64,000 bases of DNA from contig CABQXN010000001.1 of assembly GCA_902468085.1 (NCBI GenBank), forward strand, positions 73,254-137,253, in the 5' to 3' direction. Under the pieces are notes generated by a model. It saw nothing but the letters and a program-made list of their open reading frames with translations. It did no database searches and was not told where the DNA came from. This stretch comes from an uncultured Collinsella sp. (GTDB lineage Bacteria; Actinomycetota; Coriobacteriia; Coriobacteriales; Coriobacteriaceae). Shown here in pieces: positions 14,788 to 60,208 of this stretch. Each line of letters starts with the position of its first letter. Position 1 is the stretch's first letter. Position numbers and translations under genes: made by a program.

Positions 14788-15000
14788 GGTTGGTTCCTCC
14801 TTTATGTAGATGACCATGCAGAGAAGGGACAACCAAGGAGGCAGGTTACTGATGCGGACTAGCGCACGCCCACGACTACCCGACGGGGACTGTGTTTTCA
14901 TCTCTGGTGGTTGGATTGTAGCACGTGCGAATGCGCCCGGCATCGCTGCTGACATGGCGCTACTGGGATTCGCTCCTCGATGCATCCTTGTGTACATTGC

Positions 15001-33797: not shown

Positions 33798-33865
33798 CTT
33801 CCATCTCCCAACAGCTGGCAACAATAGCAGCAATTGTACTCCTGTTGCTCGGGACCCCTTTCGTT

Positions 33866-35017
33866 TTACTGTTCGGTTAACGCTACGGATCGTTTTGGAA
33901 GGCTTACGAGCATGGTGGTCCCGTTCTCGGAACTTGTTTCAACCTCTACCGTGCCACCGTGAAGCGCTGCAATCTCCCAAACAAGCGCTAGTCCGAGTCC
34001 TGCGCCGCCGTATGCCCTGCTGCGGGATTTATCCAGGCGAAAGAACGGTTGGAAGATGCTCTCACGGTACTGCTTGGGTATTCCCGGGCCCTGGTCCTCG
34101 ACTCGCAGGAACACGTGGCTGTCGTTGTCGCAGATGGAGACGTTGACAGTCGAGCCGGGGTGGCTGTAACGGATGGCATTTTCGACCAGGTTAAACACCA
34201 GCCGATAGAGGAGCGTGTCGCTCCCGATTACTAAAGCGTTCCCAGCACAATTGAGGGCTATGCCCTTATTTTCGGCAAGTGGCGCAAGGTCGGTGAGGAT
34301 CTCTTCGGACAAGGGACCAAGTTCCACATCGTCCTCGCAAGGAACGCTGCGGAGCTCACTCATCTCGAGCAACACCTTGGTCATCCGCGACATTCGCTCA
34401 GTTTGTTCTTGTAGCAGGCCGAGCAACTCGGCTGTTTCGGGTTGTAAGTTGGAGCGCTCGGAGACAAACAGTTCGATCTGTGCCTGCATAAGGGCGAGCG
34501 GGGTTCGCAGCTCGTGCGCGGCGTTGCCGGTAAATTGACGCTGTGCAGAGAACCCTTCGCCAAGACGGGCGATCATGTCGTTGAAAGAGGCGCTGCATCG
34601 TTGTAGCTCGGTGGGCACATCTTCACTGAGTCTGATTTCGCTTAGGTTGTCAGGCTGCACACGCTCAACCTGGGCTGCAAAAGCTCGTAGCGGTTTGAGT
34701 GCACGGCCGCTTACAAAGTATGCCAGCACGCCGCCAAGGAGTGTGACTCCAGCCGTGATGCGCCAGGCTGTCGTGCCAAAAGACTCCTGTGCGTCGTTTA
34801 CGACGATCGTGACCTCGTCATCGAGGGTCGCTTTCGTTGGGTCGAACGCCTGGGGCGAATCTTCGCCGGTTGCGGTAAAGGCCGAGATGTCACTGCCGAT
34901 GGCATCCATGTAGCGCATGCCCGTATAGCCGACCAGGCAGTTCGTCAGCACGCATGCCGCACACGTGAGCAGTGCCGTCATAATCGTTATGCGCCACTGC
35001 AGCGACAAACGCTTCAT
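33866..35017 (-). CDS. Sensor histidine kinase
   Basis: Two TM helices, HisKA (AAHELRTPLA) and HATPase_c (GGAGLGLALV) motifs. Confidence 0.85.
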   Translation of the reverse strand: MKRLSLQWRITIMTALLTCAACVLTNCLVGYTGMRYMDAIGSDISAFTATGEDSPQAFDPTKATLDDEVTIVVNDAQESFGTTAWRITAGVTLLGGVLAYFVSGRALKPLRAFAAQVERVQPDNLSEIRLSEDVPTELQRCSASFNDMIARLGEGFSAQRQFTGNAAHELRTPLALMQAQIELFVSERSNLQPETAELLGLLQEQTERMSRMTKVLLEMSELRSVPCEDDVELGPLSEEILTDLAPLAENKGIALNCAGNALVIGSDTLLYRLVFNLVENAIRYSHPGSTVNVSICDNDSHVFLRVEDQGPGIPKQYRESIFQPFFRLDKSRSRAYGGAGLGLALVWEIAALHGGTVEVETSSENGTTMLVSLPKRSVALTEQ

Positions 35018-36843: not shown

Positions 36844-37821
36844 ATGACCATGAAGCTTTCTAAGATTGCGGCCCTGTTTATGGTGCCGGTACTGGCCTTG
36901 TGTCTTGTGGCGTGCTCGGCACCTGGTGGCAATGCGAGCGAATCTGCGAGCTCCGATCCTAAGATCGCAGAACTCACTGCGCAGAAGCCGGCCAATGCCG
37001 ACGAGGCCGCCGAGCTGTATGCGAAGCTCATGCAGAAGGAGAACGAGATCTTTTCGAGTGATAACGCGCTGTGGGAAAAGGTATTCAATGCGGCAAATAA
37101 AGACTCGGCAATGATTGAGGACGGCAGCAATTACGGCGATTTCCTGCTCAAGACCATCGACGGCGCCAAGGATGAGTTCACGGCGGATGAGCTCAAGACG
37201 CTCAAGGCCGGTGCACAGCAGATCAAGGAGATCGAGGACAAGCTCGAGAGCCTGGAGAAGGAGTTCCCCGGCTGTGGAAGCACGCCGAGTGCAGGCGAGA
37301 GCGTCGACGCTTCGACCGCTGGCATGACGGCTGGTGCCAATGCTTCGAGCGAGGCGACGAAGTTCCCCAGCTTTACGGGCAAGGACCTGGATGGCAACGA
37401 CGTGAACAGCGACGAGCTGTTCTCTAAGAACAAGGTCACCGTCATGAACTTCTGGTTCACCACTTGCAAGCCATGCGTGGGCGAGCTGGGCGATCTTGAG
37501 AAACTGAATCAGGAGCTTGCCGAGAAGGGCGGCCAGGTCGTGGGCGTCAATTCCTTTACGCTCGATGGCAACAAGGGCGAGATTGCAGATGCCAAGGACG
37601 TGCTGAGCAAGAAGGGCGTGACGTATAAGAACATCTGGTTCAAGTCGGATAGCGATGCCGGTAAGTTTACGTCAAATTTGTTCTCGTTCCCGACAACGTA
37701 TGTCATCGATCAGAATGGCAACATCGTAGGGGATCCAATCGTGGGAGCCATCAGCTCCGCCGAGCAGCGCGCAGCACTCGACAAGCTTATCGACCAGGCG
37801 ATTGCGAATAGCGAGCAGTAG
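36844..37821 (+). CDS. Lipoprotein with C-terminal TlpA/ResA-like thioredoxin domain
   Basis: Lipobox LALCLVAC. The CxxC redox motif is WFTTCKPCVGE. Confidence 0.75.
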   Translation: MTMKLSKIAALFMVPVLALCLVACSAPGGNASESASSDPKIAELTAQKPANADEAAELYAKLMQKENEIFSSDNALWEKVFNAANKDSAMIEDGSNYGDFLLKTIDGAKDEFTADELKTLKAGAQQIKEIEDKLESLEKEFPGCGSTPSAGESVDASTAGMTAGANASSEATKFPSFTGKDLDGNDVNSDELFSKNKVTVMNFWFTTCKPCVGELGDLEKLNQELAEKGGQVVGVNSFTLDGNKGEIADAKDVLSKKGVTYKNIWFKSDSDAGKFTSNLFSFPTTYVIDQNGNIVGDPIVGAISSAEQRAALDKLIDQAIANSEQ

Positions 37822-38075
37822 AAAACGCGTAAAGCATGGCGAAGACCGTGCGCCGCTGTGCGAAGTAGTCCGCTACCTTTCAAGACAAGCTCCACCATGT
37901 AGAGGTCCCGCTCGGGACCTCTTCTTTTGGGCGCCGTTCCGTTCGTTTTTTGATGCGGTTCCCTACATTCCTCACTGGCGCCGGCAAAAAATGGGGATAG
38001 AGTAGGACAAACGCGTCGAATACGAACGGCGGGGGAGAGTGGGCGAGTGCGCCCGCGTGGGAGAGGTTGCCGTCC

Positions 38076-41000
38076 ATGTTGGAGCTCAAAGGTATTTGCA
38101 AAAGATACGTTACGCAGTCGTTTACGCAGGTGGCGCTCGACAACGTGAGCCTGTCTTTTCGGGATAACGAGTTCGTGGCCATTCTGGGTCCCTCGGGTTC
38201 GGGTAAAACTACGATGCTCAATGTTATCGGTGGGCTCGATCATTTCGATTCCGGCGACCTGCTGATCGACGGCATCTCGACCAAGGATTTTCGCGATCGC
38301 GATTGGGATGCCTACCGCAACAACCGCATCGGCTTTGTGTTCCAGAGCTATAACCTCATTCCGCACCAGACCATCTTGGAAAACGTGGAGCTGGCGCTCA
38401 CGCTCACAGGCGTGGGGCATGCCGAGCGCCGCCAGCGTGCGCGCGAGGCGTTGGAGAAAGTTGGCCTGGGCGAGCACGTTAACAAGCGCCCGAGCCAGCT
38501 ATCGGGCGGACAGATGCAGCGCGTGGCCATTGCCCGCGCCCTGATCAATGACCCTGAGATCGTCCTTGCCGACGAGCCGACTGGTGCTTTGGATTCAACG
38601 ACATCCGTACAGGTTATGGATTTGCTCAAAGACGTTGCGCGCGACCGCCTGGTTATCATGGTCACGCACAATCCCGAGCTGGCGTACCAGTACGCCACGC
38701 GTATCGTCAATCTGGCGGACGGCAAGATCACCGACGATTCCGACCCCTTTGATGCTGCCAAGGCCGCGCGTCGCGAGGCAAAGCCTACGCGCAAAACCTC
38801 GATGAGCTTTGTGACGGCGCTGGGGCTTTCTGCCCGAAACCTCATGACCAAGAAGGGCCGCACGGCCATGACTGCCTTTGCAGGCTCGATTGGCATTATC
38901 GGCATTGCGGCGATTCTGGCGCTGTCCAATGGCGTAAACGGCTACATCAAAAAGGTCGAGGAGGATACGCTCTCGAGCTACCCGCTCACCATTTCCAAGC
39001 AGGATTACGACCTGTCGTCCATGATGGGCGGGCAGGGGGCTGCGGATGATGACTCGCCTGAAAACGTGGATTCGTCCGACAACAGTGCCGGCGGCAAGGC
39101 TAAGGGAACCGATAAGATTCCTGTGGTCACGGCCGTAAAGGATATGTTTGCGAGCGTTAAGTCCAACGACATGACGAGCTTCAAGGCATGGCTCGATGCC
39201 GGTGGCGATGGCATCGATAAAGAGGTCAACGCCATTCAGTACGGCTACGGTGTATCGCCGGTTGTCTATCGCGCCGGCAAGGGCGGTGAGAAGCCTGTCC
39301 GGCTGGTGCCCAACGCCATGACCGAGGCCATGAGCGGCGGCGCGAGCTCGGCGGCAACGGTGAGTATGGAATCCATGGGAACCTCGGTCTTTAACGAGAT
39401 GATTGACGACCAGGGCCTGCTCGACAGCCAGTACGATGTCGTCGCCGGTCATTGGCCCATGTCCGCAAACGAAGCCGTGATGGTGCTTTCGAGCCGCGGT
39501 ACGGTGGGCGACTACACGCTCTATAGCATCGGCGCGCTGGATATCGATGAGCTCAACGATCTGGTAAACAGCGCTATGACGGCTGACGGTGGGGTCGAAA
39601 CGCCCGAGACCGGCACCGACTTTACCTACGACGATGCGCTGTCTACCACGTTTAAGGTGCTGTCGCCGGCCGATGCGTATCGCAAAAACGAAGAGACCGG
39701 CATGTGGACTGACATGTCTGGCGACGTCGACTTTATGACAGCCAAGGTTGCCGACGGTATCGACGTGCACATTGTGGGCGTGGTGCGACCCAACGAGACG
39801 GCCAACGCGAGCGCGTTGTCCCCGGGCATTGCCTATACGCATGCGCTGACTCGCCAGCTTATGGAGCGCGCTGCCGATTCGCAGATTGTGCAGGAGCAAC
39901 TCGCCCACCCCGAGACGGATGTCTTTACGGGTAAAACCTTCGACGAACTGCAAGGCGAGGCCAAACAAGGCGTGGATCTGAGCAGCATGTTCAGCGTGGA
40001 CGAGGCGGCGCTCAAGAGCGCGTTCTCGTTTGATGCGTCTGCACTTTCGGGTGCGGCCGGCGGTATGGACCTTTCTGGTATCGACTTATCCGGGTTGGAC
40101 ATTGACCTCTCGGACGTTGGCAAGGACATCGACTTCAGCGACATCATGGCAAAAGCACCGGCTCCAGATTTCTCGGGCATCTTTGACGGTCTGGAGCTCA
40201 CGCCCGAGCAAATGCAGCAGGTGGGAATACTTGCCAACCAACTGTTTGAGGGCTTTTTGCAGTCTGATCAGTTTAAGGCGCTGTCGCCCGAAGATCTTAA
40301 AGACGCGTCAAAGCTCGCTGCCGCATTCTCGACGTATCTTGAGAATGATGCCGCAGCCCAGCAATGCCTGGCTCAATTGAAGGCGCTCGGCGGCGATGCC
40401 CTGGCCGAGCGCCTGCAACAGGCGATGACCGACTATGTGCAAAAGCAGCTGGCTCCGTATCTGCAGCAGGCTATGGATCAGGTGATGAAGGTAATCAGCG
40501 AGCAGATAGCGTCGACGGTATCGTCCCAGCTCAAGGCGGGCACAGCGGGGCTTATGGACCAGATGGCGACGCAGATGTCTTCGAGTTTTGCCAACCTGGC
40601 GAGCGCCATGCACGTGGATGCGAGCGCCTTTGCTCGTGCCATCCATTTCAACATGGACGCCGAGGACCTGAGTTCGCTCATGATGAGCTATGCCAAGGCT
40701 TCGAAGCTCACCTACGACAACAATCTGACCACGTTGGGTTATGCGGACGAGGCGGACCCCATCTCGGTCAAGATTTTCCCGCGCGACTTTGAGGCCAAGG
40801 AGCGCGTACTCGATCACATCGATGCGTACAACAAGCAGGTCAAAGCCGCTGGCCACGATGATCGGGCAATTTCGTACACCGACTACATGGGCATCATCAT
40901 GGGTTCGGTGACCGACATCGTGAACACCATCAGCTTGGTGCTCATCGCATTCGTAAGCATCAGCCTGGTGGTGAGCTCCATCATGATCGGCATCATCACG

Positions 41001-41330
41001 TACATCAGCGTACTGGAGCGCAAGAAGGAGATCGGCATCCTACGTGCGATCGGTGCGTCGAAGCGCAACGTGGCAAACGTGTTCAACGCCGAGACCTTTA
41101 TCGAGGGCCTCATTGCCGGCGTCTTTGCCATTGTCGTCGTGGTAGCCGTGAGCTTCCCGGTTAATGCCTGGGCGCTTGCGGCCAAACAGGTCCCCAACCT
41201 GATGAGCCTGCCCGCGCAGGATGCGCTGGTGCTCATCTCAATTTCGGTGCTGCTAACGGTCGTTGCCGGCCTGCTGCCTGCCCGCAGCGCATCCAAGAAG
41301 GACCCCGTCGAAGCCCTGCGCTCCGAATAA
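38076..41330 (+). CDS. MacB-type ABC transporter, fused ATP-binding and FtsX-permease protein with large extracytoplasmic domain
   Basis: Walker [10 protein letters not shown], signature [15 protein letters not shown], and a C-terminal FtsX-like 3-TM region. 1,084 aa. Confidence 0.8.
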
Positions 41331-41359
41331 TGTGACAAAGGGACAGTCCCTTTGTCACA
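41331..41359. repeat. Palindromic repeat TGTGACAAAGGGACAGTCCCTTTGTCACA (family copy 1)
   Basis: Perfect 29-nt palindrome immediately after the ABC gene stop, followed by a second hairpin AGACCC-N10-GGGTCT. Related copies at 47518 and 47830. Confidence 0.8.
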
Positions 41360-41455
41360 TTGAGACCCTTGCGAAAACGGGGTCTAATTACCGTTCGGCA
41401 GGTTAAGAACTCCCTCTCCCCGCTTAATGCTTGACGAAGAGTCCTCTGGTTTATA

Positions 41456-41469
41456 TACCTATCGGTAGG
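41456..41469. promoter_or_regulatory. Candidate TetR operator TACC-N4-GGTAGG overlapping the -10 of the MFS gene promoter
   Basis: TTGACG at 41431-41436, TATATA at 41452-41457, then TACCTATCGGTAGG. The same motif lies upstream of the agmatine deiminase gene at 43633. Confidence 0.45.
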
Positions 41470-41505
41470 CATATAGGATGTATTGCCGATAGAAATGGAG
41501 CAACC

Positions 41506-42786
41506 ATGACTCTCACCACACCAGCCAAAAAAGATTGTCTCCGTGAAAGCGGCGCATTTGCTTGGGTCGTCGTTATTGCGCTCGGCTTAATGTCCGCCGG
41601 AACAACTGGCACATATAGCATTATTGCCGGCTCATTCGTTGCTCCAGTATGTGAAGATCTGGGCTTTGACTACACTTCTTTTTCTTTCTATTTCACCGCG
41701 ATTCTTCTTGGCCTTGCGCTTGGGCTTCCGCTTTTGAGTCGCTTCATTCCAAAAGTAATCGGCAAACCATGGCATATTTGCATTGAACTCGTCCTTATTG
41801 CCGCCGGCGCCGCAATGGCGTTCTACACCGAGGTCTGGATGTTCACCGTCTCCGCCGCAGTGATCGGCATCTGCTTTTCGTTTACAACGGGCGTCTGCAT
41901 GTCCGATGTCATTGACCAATGGTTCAGCAAATCGTCCGGTCTCGCCATCGGCCTCGCTTGGGGCGTTAATTCTCTCTGCACGCTGTTATTGAGTCCTGTC
42001 ATTACACTGGTCATCGAGCAGCAAGGCTGGCGTACGGGATACATCGTGCTTGCGGCCGTTTCTGCAGCTATGATTTTGCCTGCAAGCGCATTTATCATTC
42101 GCCTTAACCCCTCTGATCGCAATATGCTTCCGTACGGAGAGACCGCCTCCGAAACCCATGAGAGCTGCAGCGCCGATGAGCAGGAAGATGTCCTTTCGGG
42201 CATGGCACTCCGCGATGCCGCGAAAACGCCGTCTTTTATTCTCTGTGTCCTCTTGCTTTGCGTGGCGCAGCTCACCTGCTGCATGAACCAGCTGTTTCCA
42301 ACCTATGCAAGCGAGGTCGGTTTCAATCCTATCGTAGGAAGCTTAATGGTCTCGGCAGCTTCACTCTCCGATATCTTCCTAAATCCCTTCGTGGGCAAAA
42401 CATGCGACAAGCTTGGCGCTATTAAAGCAACGGTCGCATGGACAGGTGTCAGCATTCTTTCATTCCTGCTTCTTATCATTGGCGGAAGCAATGAGACCGT
42501 TTCCATCATTGCAGCTGGTGTAAACGATGTCATGTTCGCCATCGTTGGAACCGCAATGCCGATGCTTCTCCTCTCGCTCTTTGGATCACGCGATTTTGGA
42601 AGGATCTATTCGATCGTTTGCTCAGCGGGCTATGTCGTCGGTGCTTTTGGAATGCCGGTCATGATGAAGGTTTACGGCATGGCAGGGTCATTCCAGGGAG
42701 TATTTATCTTCTGCATTGCCTGCAACCTTATGATTGCTGCGTTTGCTATCGTTTCCGGCTTTCTCAATAAGGCTGCTGAAAAGTAA
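41506..42786 (+). CDS. MFS transporter (paralog 1)
   Basis: 12-TM MFS protein. About 60% N-terminal identity with the 46166..47431 gene. Confidence 0.8.
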   Translation: MTLTTPAKKDCLRESGAFAWVVVIALGLMSAGTTGTYSIIAGSFVAPVCEDLGFDYTSFSFYFTAILLGLALGLPLLSRFIPKVIGKPWHICIELVLIAAGAAMAFYTEVWMFTVSAAVIGICFSFTTGVCMSDVIDQWFSKSSGLAIGLAWGVNSLCTLLLSPVITLVIEQQGWRTGYIVLAAVSAAMILPASAFIIRLNPSDRNMLPYGETASETHESCSADEQEDVLSGMALRDAAKTPSFILCVLLLCVAQLTCCMNQLFPTYASEVGFNPIVGSLMVSAASLSDIFLNPFVGKTCDKLGAIKATVAWTGVSILSFLLLIIGGSNETVSIIAAGVNDVMFAIVGTAMPMLLLSLFGSRDFGRIYSIVCSAGYVVGAFGMPVMMKVYGMAGSFQGVFIFCIACNLMIAAFAIVSGFLNKAAEK

Positions 42787-42924
42787 TATGCGCCGATTTG
42801 CATCGGCATAGATTGCCATGCAACAGGGGTCGACTCCAAGCCAGACTGGAGTCGACCCCTGTTTTCGTTTTAAAGGTTGCCCGCAGGCACCATGGGTGCC
42901 AACATGCGCTTCAGCTTGGCTGGT

Positions 42925-43503
42925 TTATTTGAACATAAGCTCGACTATTCCCGCCCAAACCGCTTTCTCATCAATATCCTCACCTTGAGCGACCGTATTG
43001 CTTGCTCCCTCCAGAACGGTATAAAGAATTTGTACGTAGAGCATTACGTCGGCGCTATCGGAAAACGCGCCAATCTCTACGCCATGAAGAAGGATGTCTT
43101 TAAGCGCATCCATGGTTCGTTTGGTCGCCGTCGCTTGACGTTCCTGAACTGCAGGAATTCGATTTGCTTGAACGCTAACCTCGGCCAGCACGCGCCGGCG
43201 CTTTTCATCGCTTCGATAGCCACCTATAACTGAATTGCCGAGCTCGATAAGCGCGGCCTTGAACCCGTCCCTATCGACTATTAGCGAGTAGTCGCGCTGA
43301 TAGTCAATGGTCGGAAACATGCTGTCCAAGAGCGTAGTGAAAATCTCCTCTTTTGAGGGAAAGTAGTAGTACACCGACGGCTTGGATATACCGACAAAGT
43401 CGCAAATCTTTCCGATAGACGCTTTGTCATAACCGACTTCTGCCACAAGATCGTACATTGCGTCCAATATTTTTTTTCTTGTGCTCACGCTGCATTTCTC
43501 CAT
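42925..43503 (-). CDS. TetR/AcrR-family transcriptional regulator
   Basis: RKKILDAMYDLVAEVGYDKASIGKICDFVGISKPSVYYYF is the TetR HTH. Confidence 0.85.
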   Translation of the reverse strand: MEKCSVSTRKKILDAMYDLVAEVGYDKASIGKICDFVGISKPSVYYYFPSKEEIFTTLLDSMFPTIDYQRDYSLIVDRDGFKAALIELGNSVIGGYRSDEKRRRVLAEVSVQANRIPAVQERQATATKRTMDALKDILLHGVEIGAFSDSADVMLYVQILYTVLEGASNTVAQGEDIDEKAVWAGIVELMFK

Positions 43504-43632
43504 TGCAAATCACTTCCGCACTACCAACATTATTAAGGATGGCAACGGAACATCAATTCGTGTCCAAACATGACCACTATATACGGCGAACGGTATGTAT
43601 CAGTAGGCGAGCGGCAATTATTCAAAATTATC

Positions 43633-43646
43633 TACCGAACGGTAGG
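43633..43646. promoter_or_regulatory. Candidate TetR operator TACC-N4-GGTAGG (second copy)
   Basis: TACCGAACGGTAGG lies between the divergent tetR and agmatine deiminase genes. Confidence 0.45.
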
Positions 43647-43727
43647 TATAGTAGTACTATAGCAGGTGAAACCCCGCTATTGTCGCGGCCGGACAGCATC
43701 GCGGGAAACCCGACGGAAGGACCAACC

Positions 43728-44966
43728 ATGTACGAGAACTATCGTATGCCGGGCGAGTTCGAGAAGCGCTCCAACGTCTATGTGACATGGCTTCCCGATT
43801 ACATCCGTGCAGAGGGCTACGATAACCGCCAGCCCTGCGTTGACGTGATCAAGGCTCTGCTCGAGTATGGCGACGTTACGGTCAACCTCAATTGCGGCAC
43901 CCCCGGCTCCTATGAGGAGGCTTGCTCGCGCCTGAAGGAGGAGGGGGCTGATCTCGATCGCATCGAGATCACGCAGTTCGAAGACTCCAACTTCTATGTC
44001 CGCGACAACGGTCCCAGCATCATGGTCGACGACAAGGGCCATTCTTATATGGTCAACCCCGCTTGGACCTATTACGGCGTGTGGGACAAGAACTCCCCGG
44101 AGTGCCAGTCCGCACGTAAGGCAGCCGTTCACATGGCGGTTGCGCTCGGTTGCTTCGATATCGTCAATTCCGAAATGGTTTCGGAGGGCGGCGACCGCGA
44201 GTTTGACGGTCACGGCACTCTGATCGCCATCGAGGACACGGAATGCCGCAAGCGTAATCCCGAGTTCACGAAAGAGGAAGTAGAGGCCGAGTATAAGCGC
44301 ATCTACAACCTCAACAAGGTTATCTGGCTTCCGCAGCCTATGCTCGAGGACGACGACTATCGACTGGGCATCCTCGACGAGAAGGAAGACGGAACTCCCG
44401 TCTTTGGCATGAGCTTTGCAGCTCACATTGATGAGATGTGTCGCTTTATCACTCCGAACAAGATTCTTCTTGCCGAGGTGTCCGATGAAGAGGCAGCCTC
44501 GAGCAAGGCTGGAGCAGAGTCTCGTCGCCGCATTGAGGCAGCCTACGAGATCCTGAGCAACGAAACGGACTGGGAGGGCAAGCCCTTCGAGATCGTTCGT
44601 ATGCCCACCGCCGAGCCTATTGAAGTCGTTATCGCCCCTGGCGATGAAGATTACGAGCTCTATAAGGGCTTCATCGACGAAATGGGCGGCAAGTTTATGG
44701 ATGGCACCCCCTGGCCCGAGGGCCCCGTCCACTTCTACGCCGCAGCGAGCTACTGCAACTTCCTGATTTGCAACGGCGTCGTTCTTGGCCAGCGTTATTA
44801 CCACGAGGGCATGAGCGAGGTCGTGAAAGAGAAGGATGAGCAGGCCAAGGCAGTTCTTGAGAGCTGCTTCCCCGATCGCAAAGTCATCATGATTGATTCC
44901 CTCGCGCTTAACCTGTCCGGCGGCGGCGTGCACTGCTGGACTAAGGACGTGGCGGCCAGTCGTTAG
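43728..44966 (+). CDS. aguA: Agmatine deiminase family protein (PAD_porph superfamily)
   Basis: 412 aa. C-terminal LSGGGVHCWTKDV holds the catalytic Cys of agmatine deiminases. RBS GGAAGG at 43715. Confidence 0.75.
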   Translation: MYENYRMPGEFEKRSNVYVTWLPDYIRAEGYDNRQPCVDVIKALLEYGDVTVNLNCGTPGSYEEACSRLKEEGADLDRIEITQFEDSNFYVRDNGPSIMVDDKGHSYMVNPAWTYYGVWDKNSPECQSARKAAVHMAVALGCFDIVNSEMVSEGGDREFDGHGTLIAIEDTECRKRNPEFTKEEVEAEYKRIYNLNKVIWLPQPMLEDDDYRLGILDEKEDGTPVFGMSFAAHIDEMCRFITPNKILLAEVSDEEAASSKAGAESRRRIEAAYEILSNETDWEGKPFEIVRMPTAEPIEVVIAPGDEDYELYKGFIDEMGGKFMDGTPWPEGPVHFYAAASYCNFLICNGVVLGQRYYHEGMSEVVKEKDEQAKAVLESCFPDRKVIMIDSLALNLSGGGVHCWTKDVAASR

Positions 44967-45089
44967 TGAGCCTTAGAGCCTGCGCTCTTTGGCTTAGGCG
45001 CCACATGTACCGCTCCCCGAGGGATATCCGTGTTTTCCTCGGGGACACATTCAACAATAATTTTGATAATAATTCGAAAGGAAATAGGC

Positions 45090-46154
45090 ATGAACAACAG
45101 CCTCCGCGGTCGCGACTACATCAACATCCATGATCTCTCCTCCGAGGATTTCCGCTATCTCATCGATCTTGCCTGGAACCTTAAGGCTCAGAAGAAGTCT
45201 GGTGTCGACCAGCGCTACTTCCCCGGCAAAAACGTCCTCGCCAACTTTGAGTGGGGCTCGACCCGTACTCGTTGCGCATTCGAGACCTCCTGCAATGATT
45301 TGGGCATGGGCTTCACTTATCTGACCAACTCCCACATGGGTGACTGCGAGACCGTCAAGGATGCCATGCGCGTCTTTAACGGCATGTACGATCTCATCGT
45401 CTACCGCGCACAGAAGGACGAGCAGTTCCTCTATGACGTCGCCGACCTGGTTGACATCCCGGTCATCAATGCCCTTACTCTCGGCGATCACCCGACTCAG
45501 ATGCTCGCTGACGCTCTTACGATGGAAGAGCAATGGGGCGGTCTGCGTACGAGCCGCGGCAAGAAGATGGCTTTCGTTGGCAACTGCGCCGGCGCCCCAG
45601 TGTGGTATGGCCGTCTGTGCGCTATGCTCGACATGGACTTCCTCGCCATCGGCCCCGACGACCTCCGTCATCAGATGTGCAAGGAAATGATCGAAGAGGT
45701 GGAGGCCTGCTACGCCAAGTACGCTCCCAATAGGACCTTTACCATCACCTCTGACCTCGATGCCCTGGATGGCGTTGACGTTATCGTTACCGAGGAGTGG
45801 CGCTACATCAACCCCGAGTGCGGAGAAGAGGTTCTGGATCCCGACGACTACAACTCCTGGTTGGGCGATGCCGAGTCTCTGTACCCCTATCGCGTCACCA
45901 GCGAGCTGTGCAAGCGCACCAACAATCCCGACATCTTCTGCATGCATGAGCTTCCCTCTGTCCACAACGCGGATCACCGTGTTGGCAAGATGCTCCTCGA
46001 CCAGTGCAAGAACGACCTTCATCGCGAGATCATCACCGAGGGTTTCGAGATTGCCGACGAGTGCTTTGAGGCCAACGCTTCGGTCATCTTCCGTGAGGCA
46101 GAGAACCGTCAGCACACCATCAAGGCCGTTATGTGTGCCCTTCTGGGTCTCTAG
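45090..46154 (+). CDS. Putrescine/ornithine carbamoyltransferase
   Basis: STRTR carbamoyl-phosphate motif, HPTQ, and FCMHELP (HCLP-like). Its position next to the agmatine deiminase gene suggests putrescine carbamoyltransferase. Confidence 0.75.
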   Translation: MNNSLRGRDYINIHDLSSEDFRYLIDLAWNLKAQKKSGVDQRYFPGKNVLANFEWGSTRTRCAFETSCNDLGMGFTYLTNSHMGDCETVKDAMRVFNGMYDLIVYRAQKDEQFLYDVADLVDIPVINALTLGDHPTQMLADALTMEEQWGGLRTSRGKKMAFVGNCAGAPVWYGRLCAMLDMDFLAIGPDDLRHQMCKEMIEEVEACYAKYAPNRTFTITSDLDALDGVDVIVTEEWRYINPECGEEVLDPDDYNSWLGDAESLYPYRVTSELCKRTNNPDIFCMHELPSVHNADHRVGKMLLDQCKNDLHREIITEGFEIADECFEANASVIFREAENRQHTIKAVMCALLGL

Positions 46155-46165
46155 GAGCTGCGTCA

Positions 46166-47431
46166 ATGGAAAATGCAAAGTTAAAGAGCAGCAAGGTTTA
46201 CGCATGGGTTCTCGTAATCGCGCTCGGCCTTATGTCTGCCGGCACGACCGGATCCTATAGCGTCATCGCGGGCTCCTTCGTCGCACCCGTGTGCGAGGAG
46301 TTCGGGTTTGACTATTCCATCTTCTCGTATTACTTCACCGCAACGCTCATTGGTCTTGCGGCAGCTCTTCCGTTTGTCGGAAAACTCATTCCCAAGGTCG
46401 TTGGCAAGGTTTGGCTCCCCGTTGTCGAGCTTATTTTGCTCGCTGCCGGCGCAGGCATGGCCTTCTACACCGAAGTCTGGATGTTCATCGCCGCTGGCGC
46501 CCTGATTGGCGTTTGCTTCGCCTTCACCACCGGCGTCGCTATGTCCGACGTTATTGACCAGTGGTTCAAAAAATCTGGTGGCCTGGCAATCGGTCTCGCT
46601 TGGGCAGTGAACTCGATTTACATGCTCATCATGAGTCCCGTCATCACCTCTGTCATCGAGGCCGCTGGCTGGAGAACTGGTTATCTGGTGCTCGCCGGTG
46701 TTTCCGCAGTGCTCATTCTCCCAGCTTCCATTCTGATCATCCGCTACAAGCCTCAGGACAAGGGCATGCTGCCCTATGGCTACGTCGAGGGCGAGACGGT
46801 CACCGAGACCGAGGAGACGACCGAGGATAGCACGCGTGGCGTTAGCTATGCGCGCGCCATTAAGTCGCCTGCCTTCTTCTTCTGCATCGGCTTCCTCTGT
46901 CTCGTTCAGCTCACTTGCTGCATGAACCAGCTCTTCCCGACGTATGCTTCCGAGGTTGGTTTTAGCCCCATGGTGGGCGGCTTCATGGTATCCGCTGCAT
47001 CGCTCTTCGATCTGTTCCTCAATCCGATCGTCGGCACCACTTGCGATAGGTTCGGCAGCACGAAGGCCATTCTGGGCTGGCTCGCTGTCTCCATCCTCTC
47101 CTTTGTCATGCTCATGATGAGCAGCGGCAACTCGACGCTCAGCATCCTCGCAGCAGGCGTGAACGACGTAATGTACGTCATCGCTGGCACTGCCCTGACC
47201 GTTTTGGTTATGGATGTCTTTGGCTCCCGCGATTTCGGTCGCATCTTCGCGCTGATCTGCTCCGTGGGCTATATCGTCGGCGCCTTTGGCATGCCCGTTA
47301 TGATGAAGGTCTATGAGCTTGTCGGCTCCTTCCAGGGCGTCTTCATCTTCTGCATCGCATGCAACGTTATTATCGGCCTGTTCTTGCTGCTGGCAAAAAA
47401 GACTGGTAAGAACCTCTCCTGGGACGAATAG
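46166..47431 (+). CDS. MFS transporter (paralog 2)
   Basis: Paralog of 41506..42786. RBS AGGAG at 46153. Confidence 0.8.
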   Translation: MENAKLKSSKVYAWVLVIALGLMSAGTTGSYSVIAGSFVAPVCEEFGFDYSIFSYYFTATLIGLAAALPFVGKLIPKVVGKVWLPVVELILLAAGAGMAFYTEVWMFIAAGALIGVCFAFTTGVAMSDVIDQWFKKSGGLAIGLAWAVNSIYMLIMSPVITSVIEAAGWRTGYLVLAGVSAVLILPASILIIRYKPQDKGMLPYGYVEGETVTETEETTEDSTRGVSYARAIKSPAFFFCIGFLCLVQLTCCMNQLFPTYASEVGFSPMVGGFMVSAASLFDLFLNPIVGTTCDRFGSTKAILGWLAVSILSFVMLMMSSGNSTLSILAAGVNDVMYVIAGTALTVLVMDVFGSRDFGRIFALICSVGYIVGAFGMPVMMKVYELVGSFQGVFIFCIACNVIIGLFLLLAKKTGKNLSWDE

Positions 47432-47517
47432 TTCGATTCGTCTTAGACATACGCTGTAGGGCTTAACCTGCAGCCGCTTTGGGGCATCGACTAACATCGG
47501 TGCCCTTTTTCATCGAA

Positions 47518-47546
47518 TGTGACAAAGGAGCAGCCACTTTGTCACA
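47518..47546. repeat. Palindromic repeat TGTGACAAAGGAGCAGCCACTTTGTCACA (family copy 2)
   Basis: 10-bp arms identical to copy 1, and the same ATTGAG follows it. Confidence 0.75.
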
Positions 47547-47563
47547 TTGAGTGGCATGTAAAT

Positions 47564-47745
47564 CGAGGTCTAATACTTTTCCGAGAAGTGAACGGCCATA
47601 CTTGGGCCTCCGAAGCATCGACATTTTTAGACGTCAAACCCGCAGGATTTGGCTGGCAAAACCGCAGGAAATTGCATCTCGAAAGTGCAGATGCTTCGGG
47701 GCCCGTTTTCACTCGTTCACTTCTCGGGAAAAGTATTAGACCTCG
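47564..47745. mobile_element. MITE-like element with 31-bp terminal inverted repeats
   Basis: CGAGGTCTAATACTTTTCCGAGAAGTGAACG is inverted against CGTTCACTTCTCGGGAAAAGTATTAGACCTCG (1 indel). The 120-bp core has an internal inverted repeat CCGAAGCATC/GATGCTTCGG and a direct repeat AAACCCGCAGGA. Confidence 0.5.
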
Positions 47746-47829
47746 TTGTATGGGGTGCGGCTGGAGGGTGGTCATCGTTCAGTAGCTACCTCTTCCTTGT
47801 GAATCGCCTGAAGCGCAAGGCATAATGCA

Positions 47830-47858
47830 TGTGACAAAGGGACGGCCCCTTTGTTGTG
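47830..47858. repeat. Palindromic repeat family copy 3 (degenerate: TGTGACAAAGGGACGGCCCCTTTGTTGTG)
   Basis: The left arm is identical and the right arm degraded. Lies 20 nt upstream of the Dus gene. Confidence 0.6.
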
Positions 47859-47878
47859 TTGATATGAGAGAAGAGTAG

Positions 47879-48832
47879 ATGATCCTTTCGCTGGCCCCCA
47901 TGGAGGGGATTACCGGGCATGTGTTCCGTCGCGTGCATGCGGAGTGCTTCGGTGCGCTCGATTGCTATTACACGCCATTTTTGCCGCCGCCGCGGGTGGG
48001 AAACCGCTTTGGCGGCAAGGCGTTTAAGGAGATCGATCCTGCCAATAACCAGGGGCTCAACGTGGTGCCTCAGCTGATGTCCAAGAACGCGGACGAGTTT
48101 GTGTGGGCGGCACAGGTGCTCGCTGACATGGGCTACCGCGAGGTCAATCTCAACTTGGGTTGCCCTTCGGGAACGGTTGTCGCCAAGGGCAAGGGCTCGG
48201 GTTTCTTGCGCAATCTCGACGAGCTCGAGGCGTTCTTAAGCGATGTGTGCGAGCGGTCGCCGTTGCCGGTATCGGTCAAAACTAGGCTGGGGCTCGAGGA
48301 CGACGACGAGTATGAGCGCGTGCTCGATCTGTATTGCCGCATGCCGCTAACAGAGCTGATCGTGCATCCGCGCGTACAGAAGGACCGTTATACAGGCTCA
48401 CCGCGCAAAGAGTTCTATGGCGAGACGCTGGAACGTGCGCCGTTTCCGGTGGCATACAACGGCGATATTTTTGATCTTGAGGATATGGATGCGCTGGTGG
48501 AGGCCTATCCCGGGACACGCCATGTGATGCTGGGGCGTGGCTTGCTTGCGAATCCCGCTCTCGCTCGCATGGTCAAGGGCGGCCCTGCTGCCACGGCAGC
48601 CGAACTGCAGCGTTTCCACGACACGCTGTTTGCGGCCTATGCAGAAGAGATTGGCGGTAACGCGGTCTTTCGTATGAAGGAGTGGTGGTTCTACGCCAAG
48701 TGCGCTTTCGTCGACCCCGCTACCGTTCACAAGCTCGTACGTAAGACCAAAAAGGTCGACGAATACCGCGCCGCCGTCGAGCGGGTCTTTCGCGAGCAGC
48801 CACTCGCACCCATAGCTCGCTTCCGCGGCTAG
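47879..48832 (+). CDS. tRNA-dihydrouridine synthase
   Basis: MILSLAPMEGITGHVFRR...NLNLGCPS is the Dus family FMN/active-site region. 317 aa. Confidence 0.85.
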   Translation: MILSLAPMEGITGHVFRRVHAECFGALDCYYTPFLPPPRVGNRFGGKAFKEIDPANNQGLNVVPQLMSKNADEFVWAAQVLADMGYREVNLNLGCPSGTVVAKGKGSGFLRNLDELEAFLSDVCERSPLPVSVKTRLGLEDDDEYERVLDLYCRMPLTELIVHPRVQKDRYTGSPRKEFYGETLERAPFPVAYNGDIFDLEDMDALVEAYPGTRHVMLGRGLLANPALARMVKGGPAATAAELQRFHDTLFAAYAEEIGGNAVFRMKEWWFYAKCAFVDPATVHKLVRKTKKVDEYRAAVERVFREQPLAPIARFRG

Positions 48833-48837
48833 TTAGA

Positions 48838-48885
48838 CATCGGGGACGTTCTTTAGCGACTAGTCATTTAAGAACGTCCCCGATG
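48838..48885 (+). terminator. Terminator hairpin after the Dus gene (16-bp perfect stem)
   Basis: CATCGGGGACGTTCTT-N16-AAGAACGTCCCCGATG. Confidence 0.7.
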
Positions 48886-48960
48886 ACTACCCGCAAAAAC
48901 TGTACACCAGCATCCAAAGATGTCGAAAGATGTCGACTTTGGATGCTGGCGTATATGTTT
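48868..48960. repeat. 93-bp direct repeat, copy 1 (includes the CCAGCATCCAAAG...CTTTGGATGCTGG hairpin)
   Basis: Matches 49954..50043 with about 6 mismatches. Confidence 0.75.
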
Positions 48961-48981
48961 GGGTCGGCGGGGGAGTTGAGT

Positions 48982-49248
48982 TTAGGCAATCATTGCATCG
49001 AGCGTGATGAGCTCCCTGAGTCGCTCCGTGCGTGTTTGCCCATGGCGCTTTGCTTTTGCGTCAAGGGCTTCAAGGACCGATTCGCCCACACGTGCCGATA
49101 AAACAACGCTTGGCTCATCGGAGATCGACGGCCTTCCCAGCTTGATGGTGCGACCCTTCGGCCATTCATCTTTTTCGTATGCCTCTGCGGCTTTCTCCAA
49201 CTCTCCGGGGGCAAACCCCATCATTTTTTCGAGCTGCTTAGCGTCCAT
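48982..49248 (-). CDS. Ribbon-helix-helix (CopG/BrnA-like) antitoxin-family protein, no adjacent toxin
   Basis: 88 aa. C-terminal SARVGESVLEALDAKAKRHGQTRTERLRELI is an RHH motif. No partner ORF on either side. Confidence 0.5.
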   Translation of the reverse strand: MDAKQLEKMMGFAPGELEKAAEAYEKDEWPKGRTIKLGRPSISDEPSVVLSARVGESVLEALDAKAKRHGQTRTERLRELITLDAMIA

Positions 49249-49652
49249 AGCGTCTCCTATCGATCGGCATAATGTCGAGCACAGGTCAACGGATAATCTT
49301 TTTGTATACAGTCTTGTAGACAAAAAAACAAACAGTTTATCAGGCTAATTAGCTTGTTTTGACCCGCGTGTTCGATAGAAAATGAGCATTGACGGCTTCG
49401 ATACTCCTTTGCTTTTCAGCCTGGAATTTGGATGCTCATTGAACTTCCGGAGGGGAGCGCTTTATTAAGCTATCGAGATTCTGGGCAGGAGCTCTCACTG
49501 GTCTTCGATAATGGGACCAGCTTAATTCGCGACACAGTGTGTCGCGAATGGGAGTAGTCGTTAGGTGTCCTTCAATGGCTAATCATATAAGAACGTCCAA
49601 GTGCCGGATTTTGTCATTTAGTGTCGTCCTCAGCGGCTATTCTGGAGGGTCG

Positions 49653-49953: not shown

Positions 49954-50043
49954 TTAAGAGCGTCCATGACTACCCGCAAAAGCTGTACACCAGCATCCAA
50001 AGATGTCGAAAAATGACGACTTTGGATGCTGGTGTACATGTTT
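49954..50043. repeat. 93-bp direct repeat, copy 2
   Basis: See copy 1. The two copies bracket the RHH gene and the IR element. Confidence 0.75.
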
Positions 50044-50085
50044 AGGCCGTATGGGGTGGGGCCTTGGGCGGACGGGATGCGCATG

Positions 50086-60016: not shown

Positions 60017-60208
60017 TCCTAACGAATCGAGACATTACCGCATAAGGATACCAGCTCAGCCTGCCCAGTCGGCAGCTGCACCGCTAAACGGTCCCGCCCG
60101 GCAGTTGGGGACAGTCCCTTTCTGCCGGCACAAAAGGAACGTTCCTAACTGTCGGTTGTGGGACAATATCGAGCGAATGTGATTGGGCGTCTGGGAAAAG
60201 GGGTCGCG

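Follow-up and report, generated by a model that had tools for sequence, protein, structure and literature searches.

A low-copy palindromic repeat of Collinsella lies near stop codons and coincides with gene-cassette junctions

The repetitive extragenic palindromes (REPs) of Enterobacteria and Pseudomonas, with their bacterial interspersed mosaic elements (BIMEs) and the REP doublets forming hairpins (REPINs) that go with REP-associated tyrosine transposases (RAYTs), are short extragenic hairpin repeats of 20-40 nt at 3' or intercistronic positions, many of them within 15 nt of a stop codon. Shyamala et al. are said to have described REPs in 1990 as join-points for duplications and rearrangements. 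REP abundance is usually more than 100 copies per genome, according to Nunvar et al. 2010 (PMC2817692). In the minimal mobile elements of Neisseria a conserved gene pair holds alternative cassettes without mobility genes. In integrons (attC sites) and in the pdif (Xer-site) modules of Acinetobacter a short palindromic site abuts the 3' end of the cargo gene, and module content and order are variable. Likenesses to each of these systems were found for PAL, a 29-31-nt extragenic palindrome in a 64,000-nt stretch of DNA from an uncultured Collinsella species (assembly GCA_902468085.1, contig CABQXN010000001.1, positions 73,254 to 137,253; the whole stretch is called the window). Comparison of species showed that this low-copy Collinsella palindrome lies near stop codons and coincides with the junctions of gene cassettes. 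We class PAL with the dispersed intergenic palindromic repeats that mark recombination junctions, a known sort of element.

Three copies, none assigned to a strand, lie within 6.5 kb of the window and form a local cluster. PAL1 (core 41331-41359; 41330..41360 with the flanking A and T conserved in the family) is a perfect 14+1+14 palindrome of 29 nt, TGTGACAAAGGGAC-A-GTCCCTTTGTCACA, and is abutted by the TAA stop codon (41328-41330) of an ABC/FtsX gene. PAL2 (core 47518-47546; 47517..47547 with flanks) has the same perfect 10-bp arms around a diverged centre, differs from the family consensus by 4 mismatches and shares the trailing TTGAG with PAL1. PAL3 (core 47830-47858; 47829..47859 with flanks) is degenerate, with 5 mismatches to the consensus. 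The mutated arm of PAL3 is the one proximal to dus, whose start codon lies 20 nt downstream, and its orthologues in other genomes are perfect. A preliminary description of this DNA had named these three copies, and its account of each was borne out, including the identical arms and shared trailing bases of the second. The pattern TGTGACAAAG-N5-13-CTTTGTCACA matched twice in the window, against 0.00 matches expected from 100 shuffles. No further half-sites at up to 1 mismatch and no further full copies at up to 7 mismatches were found in the 64 kb. Folded as single-stranded DNA, PAL1, PAL2 and PAL3 gave -15.8, -11.0 and -7.6 kcal/mol, respectively, with z-scores of -9.4, -5.3 and -3.0.

A hairpin at 60100-60128, GGCAG-TTGGGGACAGTCCCTTT-CTGCC, has 14 nt in common with the PAL centre. 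It had been listed with the palindromes because of the motif GGGACAGTCCCTTT, which is indeed present. Its arms are self-complementary and differ from those of PAL, and it lies in a divergent 5' region; for these two reasons it was left out of the family. It may be a decayed relative of PAL or a coincidence.

The distribution of PAL was examined by scanning GTDB, one genome per species, with the arm pattern as query and the centre unconstrained. At least 120 stretches matched. Among the 80 matches listed, 70 were labelled Collinsella and 9 of the other 10 had the flanks of Collinsella sites; the tenth was a Pirellulaceae genome in which the centre is unrelated to PAL. Copies were counted at up to 6 mismatches in these loci and the window, 0.93 Mb together, which gave 169 copies with 68 flank types at 49 distinct flank-pair sites. 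The suggestion of a repeat family was thus upheld well beyond the copies that had prompted it. The consensus, A-TGTGACAAAGGGAC-N-GTCCCTTTGTCACA-T, is a fully symmetric 31-nt perfect palindrome. Its centre is conserved even though the search did not fix it, with G11 and G12 at 92% and C14 at 95%, and the most variable positions, 13, 15 and 17, are all central. Outside the core, A is found on the left at 90% and T on the right in 60/67 flank types. Because both the centre and the flanking A and T are conserved, the element was defined as the full 31 nt.

Copy number was estimated from counts of BLAST places and from 90 kb inspected directly. The sole near-full-length match in PLSDB was a Collinsella aerofaciens record, NZ_OY725717.1 (loci L123 and L124), labelled 'plasmid 6' of strain TSDC17.2-1.1 and 899,693 bp long. 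Its gene content includes recA, ftsK, lexA, dxs and map, and since recA, ftsK and lexA are aboard it appears to be a chromosomal piece rather than a plasmid. A plasmid origin of PAL was rejected, as this lone match is really chromosomal; PLSDB otherwise contained a 19-nt chance match in a Paenibacillus plasmid (E = 1). The record has 7-8 BLAST places for PAL. A palindromic query matches both strands, so these were read as about 4 sites, three of which were inspected directly in the sequence. One PAL was found in an unbiased 50-kb piece and 3 in the window. These figures suggest roughly ten copies per genome, not hundreds. Clustering is general, with at least two PALs within 8 kb in 41/116 loci, compared with about 4 sites in 0.9 Mb. 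A phage origin was rejected as well, since in two viral contigs only the arms are matched, around unrelated centres, and a phage collection gave no BLAST hit. On the genomes searched, PAL is a low-copy, dispersed family restricted to the genus Collinsella. Rfam at E <= 1 gave no match at the PALs or at the 185-nt foldback described below, and the searchable literature contained no description of the PAL sequence or of any Collinsella REP.

The preliminary description had likened the repeats to REPs or miniature inverted-repeat transposable elements (MITEs). They are a dispersed repeat family, as that comparison implies, and PAL falls within the size range of REPs. The family nevertheless lacks defining features of both. 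PAL has about 4 detectable sites per 0.9 Mb, whereas REPs have hundreds per genome. PAL is perfect and symmetric, while a REP is imperfect with an asymmetric 5' GT(A/G)G head (GTAG). PAL copies are single, and REPs often form inverted doublets (REPIN/BIME). A RAYT, which is a Y1 transposase, is typically flanked by REPs, but none adjoins any PAL in the loci scanned. An origin from RAYT or IS200 elements was rejected because the one IS200-like element found, a TnpA gene (L076:6066-6566) 5.8 kb from a PAL, has end hairpins unrelated to PAL. MITEs are about 100-400 bp long, with terminal inverted repeats around internal sequence; PAL has one central base, and its flanking A...T extends the palindrome instead of forming a direct target-site duplication.

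The coincidence of PAL with cassette borders became apparent when flanks were compared between genomes. Through PAL, 17/68 flank types are joined to more than one partner flank, and in most of those 17 inter-genome homology stops at the PAL edge. At three loci the comparison is clean: PAL-cassette-PAL is present in one genome where another has a single PAL. In the first (L014 vs L027) the cassette is an AAA_16-HTH gene, with a SpoU-methylase gene on one side and a UvrA-like gene on the other. In the second (L018 vs L059) it is a segment of 380 bp that separates a HAD-hydrolase gene from a TetR gene. In the third (the window vs L065 and L096) it is a polyamine module, so that the expected genomes without the module, with a single palindrome at the junction, do exist. 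An empty site for PAL alone, as needed for a target-duplication test, was not found among the loci compared. PAL itself has a 23-nt slippage deletion in L007, and an ambiguous PAL indel lies between two genes in L105 vs L014.

Other variable positions in or near PAL loci were noted. At 33855-33897 of the window related genomes carry an extra cassette consisting of a GMP-synthase-C-like gene, a PAL and a terminator. At 37821-38067 they carry a CoA-disulfide-reductase-like gene with a PAL, and the window retains only the right half of a terminator. Behind the PAL that follows the SpoU-methylase gene, L009 (3746-7310) and L103 (5208-7999) have a lower-GC island (46-52% GC). DUF4230 and unknown genes are present on it, and in L009 it also carries a serine recombinase (resolvase), at a distance of 3 kb from the PAL. 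The island may be an integrated element that used the PAL junction.

The polyamine module occupies a hot spot between two conserved genes, a MacB-like ABC ATPase with an FtsX permease domain on the left (38067..41330, plus strand) and the dihydrouridine synthase gene dus on the right (47879..48832, plus strand). At least six architectures of this ABC-dus interval were found, and each junction has a PAL. The cargo may be the polyamine module; LysR, aldo-keto reductase and flavodoxin genes; DUF3592 and an unknown protein; or just the foldback. No recombinase was found among the cargo of this interval. A conserved gene pair that holds alternative cassettes without mobility genes resembles the Neisseria minimal mobile elements. 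In Collinsella, however, every internal junction bears one specific palindrome, and exchange by transformation is not established.

In the window the 6.1-kb module (41389..47510, plus strand) behaves as one indel unit. The order is the ABC/FtsX gene, PAL1, MFS1 (41507-42786), a terminator inside the module (42822-42863), the regulator gene tetR (42925-43503, minus strand), the agmatine deiminase gene aguA (43728-44966), a putrescine carbamoyltransferase gene (45030-46154), MFS2 (46133-47431), its canonical terminator (47481-47506), PAL2, a foldback termed LH (47559..47750, no strand assigned), PAL3 and dus. To describe the module independently of the palindrome, 80 metagenome loci were gathered by means of the agmatine deiminase protein, hence without selection for PAL. 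The module ends are identical in all 80 (41389 and 47510 in window coordinates), and the usual order is ABC-PAL-module-PAL. In L146 and L159 the module sits instead between a peroxiredoxin-like gene (prx) and the ABC gene, with a degenerate PAL after it and, flanking it, a duplicated stretch of about 100 bp from the ABC upstream region. Because the ends are constant and the position may be on either side of the ABC gene, the module is, by locus comparison, a unit of its own that genomes have gained, lost and moved.

Inside the module a promoter-like sequence, TTGACG-17-TATACC, is accompanied by TetR-type operators. The palindrome TACCG-NN-CGGTA occurs in the window only at 41389-41400, 41456-41467 and 43633-43644, which are the module promoter regions upstream of MFS1 and between tetR and aguA. 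These sites are probably operators of the module's own TetR.

The borders of the module contain PAL and in several genomes extend beyond it. LH is a near-perfect foldback of 185 nt whose terminal inverted repeats, beginning GAGGTCTAATACTTTTCC..., measure 24-30 nt; the folding z-score of the region is -10. The module of L144 and L145 is flanked by complete PAL-spacer-LH units, which form direct repeats of about 230 bp. LH also follows PAL1 in L147, L150, L155, L156 and L176. At this place the window retains a spacer remnant, TTGAG...GGGGTCTAAT, with the first LH bases (41360..41388, plus strand), and L171 and L172 only 13 nt. The motif GGTCTAAT, which had been taken for a second hairpin after the first two copies, is real. 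It belongs to LH, being the start of its terminal inverted repeat after PAL2, and after PAL1 of the window only the remnant TTGAG...GGTCTAAT is left. A sigma-70 promoter after PAL1 and PAL2 (TTGAG(A/T)-16/17-TCTAAT), with PAL as an activator site, was considered and rejected, since TCTAAT is where the foldback inverted repeat starts, this place is occupied in other genomes by 13 nt or by an entire foldback, and the module has its own promoter-like sequence.

LH was seen only in the ABC-dus hot spot, always about 16 nt from a PAL. Its orientation varies between genomes, with the inner part flipped. Inversion between PAL2 and PAL3 was rejected as the cause of the flip because LH's own 30-nt terminal inverted repeats explain it. 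LH could be a small foldback element or a small RNA gene.

Thus the repeats at the module borders include PAL but can exceed it in length. The PALs do bracket the module, as had been proposed. The further proposal of a recombination site fares less well, since direct repeats of about 230 bp make ordinary homologous recombination sufficient and no dedicated site-specific system is indicated.

We nevertheless considered that PAL could be the core site of an unlinked, trans-acting site-specific recombinase of the lox, dif or integron kind, with which single genes and operons such as the agmatine-deiminase module would be moved between about ten landing sites per genome. Lox and dif cores have 11-13-bp inverted arms around a 6-8-bp crossover region, and a reading of PAL as 13 + 7 + 13 bp, in which the variable positions are central, would fit this, although such a geometry is not diagnostic by itself. 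The 3' ends of single-gene cassettes abut a PAL, homology breaks exactly at PAL edges, and the order of cassettes varies, the module preceding the ABC gene in some genomes and following it in others. Recombination partners of the lox type share a spacer. PAL pairs around a cassette share the 7-nt centre in 6/46 cases, no more often than random pairs (14.8%), which speaks against such a requirement, and PAL1, PAL2 and PAL3 have three different centres. No integrase or recombinase adjoins PAL clusters, and none is annotated within 20 kb of the C. aerofaciens PAL pair; a scan of about 45 gene families adjoining PALs yielded no recombinase and no transposase. The direct repeats around the module and the lack of special constraint on orthologous PALs (below) argue in the same direction. 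An attC site is a 55-140-nt imperfect palindrome with R''/L''-L'/R' boxes and extrahelical bases, located in arrays next to intI. PAL is perfect, lacks the AAC...GTT boxes and is dispersed over the chromosome with no integrase in the flanks scanned. It also differs from pdif, as it has no XerC/XerD arm asymmetry and the centres of partner sites are not matched. A dedicated recombinase is therefore an improbable explanation for PAL.

The explanation that we favour, with somewhat better than even confidence, is that PAL is a REP-like dispersed palindrome acting as portable homology for cassette gain and loss. PAL copies, alone or with adjacent repeats such as the 185-nt foldback, would supply short portable homology. 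Being self-complementary, PAL may be prone to hairpin or cruciform formation and to breakage, and is probably a fragile site. Homologous recombination by the host, single-strand annealing or replication slippage between two PALs would delete the genes between them and leave one PAL. Insertion could occur by the reverse reaction, or by replacement through conserved flanks after DNA uptake, and the variants would then be spread by exchange via the conserved genes on both sides.

Several points weigh against this explanation. The recombination mechanism was deduced from comparison of species, and no event was observed directly. Operon ends are natural boundaries of indels, so PAL would be expected at some junctions even if it had no part in causing them. 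At the module the repeat unit exceeds PAL, being either PAL plus LH or PAL plus a terminator and the ABC upstream region, so PAL itself need not be the crossover point. A repeat of 29-31 bp is at the lower limit for RecA-dependent exchange. Orthologues of PAL1 have a mean identity of 0.936, compared with 0.924-0.955 for neighbouring non-coding DNA and 0.911 for coding DNA. PAL1 is thus no more conserved than its neighbours, which argues against strong selection for a sequence-specific function. Finally, a purely recombinational role leaves the tight spacing between PAL and stop codons unexplained.

The position of PAL relative to genes was examined. All 49 sites are intergenic, and twelve sites are between convergent 3' ends, where the intergenic DNA may be as short as 40 nt. 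A few copies called inside open reading frames (ORFs) were artefactual, caused by ORF starts set too far upstream or by antisense ORFs. The median distance from PAL to the nearest stop codon upstream is 7 nt, with quartiles of 0 and 44. This stop codon is no more than 15 nt away in 31/39 sites, and in 15 it is directly adjacent (0 nt) or overlaps PAL; where it overlaps, the TGA of PAL supplies the stop codon. The RefSeq annotation of the C. aerofaciens record agrees: one copy begins 0 nt after the stop codon of a HAD-hydrolase gene, another is 121 nt upstream of a TetR-like gene and a third is between convergent genes. PALs also occur between genes of one operon, and some are 50-170 nt upstream of a start codon. 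No shared function links the adjoining genes, which comprise housekeeping as well as accessory genes.

A stable GC-containing hairpin after stop codons and between convergent genes resembles an intrinsic (Rho-independent) terminator. The T-tract is missing, however, in 62/67 flank types; only 5/67 are T-rich (at least 5 T among the first 8 nt). One sequence is repeated at 49 or more sites, and PAL may come before or after a canonical terminator. A terminator scan found no site at PAL1, PAL2 or PAL3, the nearest being the separate hairpin at 47481-47506, which ends 11 nt before PAL2. In all genomes compared a PAL is 15-20 nt upstream of dus, and PAL can therefore be no strong terminator at that place. 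For these reasons PAL was rejected as an ordinary intrinsic terminator. The outcome that would have undone the preliminary description, namely that only the local copies exist and behave as ordinary terminators, is likewise contradicted by the number of sites and the scarcity of T-rich flanks.

PAL might still be primarily an RNA element: as a 3' or intercistronic hairpin it could stop exonucleases, reduce read-through or hold up ribosomes at termination. In that case it would be found at cassette borders merely as a consequence of marking the ends of operons. The stem of 13-15 bp is very stable, and the closeness to stop codons, the use of PAL's own TGA and the location between convergent genes and within operons also speak for such an element. 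PMC12306157, citing Liang et al., reports that ribosomes stall at REPs located no more than 15 nt from a stop codon, and the spacing of PAL is as in these E. coli REPs. Pairing is kept by compensatory changes in some variants, as symmetry is maintained by changes in both arms (TGAGGC..GCCTCA, TATGAC..GTCATA and TGCGAC..GTCGCA). The covariation score was 0.099, compared with 0.084 for shuffles, and was reached by 1/500 shuffles, with few independent events behind it. Template-switch 'correction' of quasi-palindromes could yield symmetric variants without selection. Relative to the upstream gene, stem mismatches were G.U-compatible in 29 cases and A.C in 26 (p = 0.79), and this lack of asymmetry gives no sign of selection for an RNA hairpin in the sense strand. 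The rarity of T-tracts, the position of PAL2 behind a canonical terminator and of other copies ahead of one, the PAL close upstream of dus, and the evolution of orthologous copies at the pace of neighbouring DNA also count against a primary RNA function. We regard it as a possible explanation, to be held only tentatively. It is compatible with PAL as portable homology, and by analogy with REPs an mRNA hairpin affecting decay or translation termination of the upstream gene is a candidate secondary role.

Regulation of neighbouring genes by a CRP/FNR-like or other dimeric transcription factor was also weighed, since the arms contain TGTGA/TCACA, some PALs are 50-170 nt upstream of a start codon, and about ten copies per genome would be a regulon-like number. 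CRP/FNR sites are promoter elements of the form TGTGA-N6-TCACA or TTGAT-N4-ATCAA. The half-sites of PAL are separated by N19, as the preliminary description had recognised in dismissing such sites, and the entire 29-31 nt are conserved, centre included. An operator would not be expected at twelve sites between convergent 3' ends, nor ahead of genes as functionally diverse as TetR, dus, Kup, a sugar kinase and AAA ATPases. A protein site is not expected to undergo symmetric double changes in its two arms, and the module's own TetR has a different palindrome at its promoters. The spacing, the convergent sites and the unrelated downstream genes led us to reject an operator, which is a very remote explanation.

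Collinsella is an abundant genus of the human gut and is highly variable between strains, and PAL marks the exact points at which their gene content differs. Among these differences is an entire agmatine-to-putrescine pathway, transporters and regulator included, so PAL helps to explain and predict strain-level differences in polyamine metabolism. It is usable as a marker of variable loci and of likely break points in assembly and binning, and is a candidate landing site for engineering. As a clean low-copy case outside the Proteobacteria in which a palindromic element matches cassette junctions base-for-base, PAL makes the question of cause versus marker in repeat-linked rearrangements testable in a small system.

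Two other features of the window were observed. A second hairpin repeat family is represented by two 91-nt copies (48883-48973 and 49966-50056) that are 89% identical and flank a segment of about 1 kb with a ribbon-helix-helix (CopG-like) ORF (48982-49323, minus strand). Several related genomes have a single 91-nt repeat and no segment, the same repeat-cassette-repeat versus single-repeat pattern as PAL. An azaaromatic (yjdF) riboswitch aptamer is located at 14809-14911 on the minus strand, with an Rfam score of 56.4 bits against a gathering score of 45.

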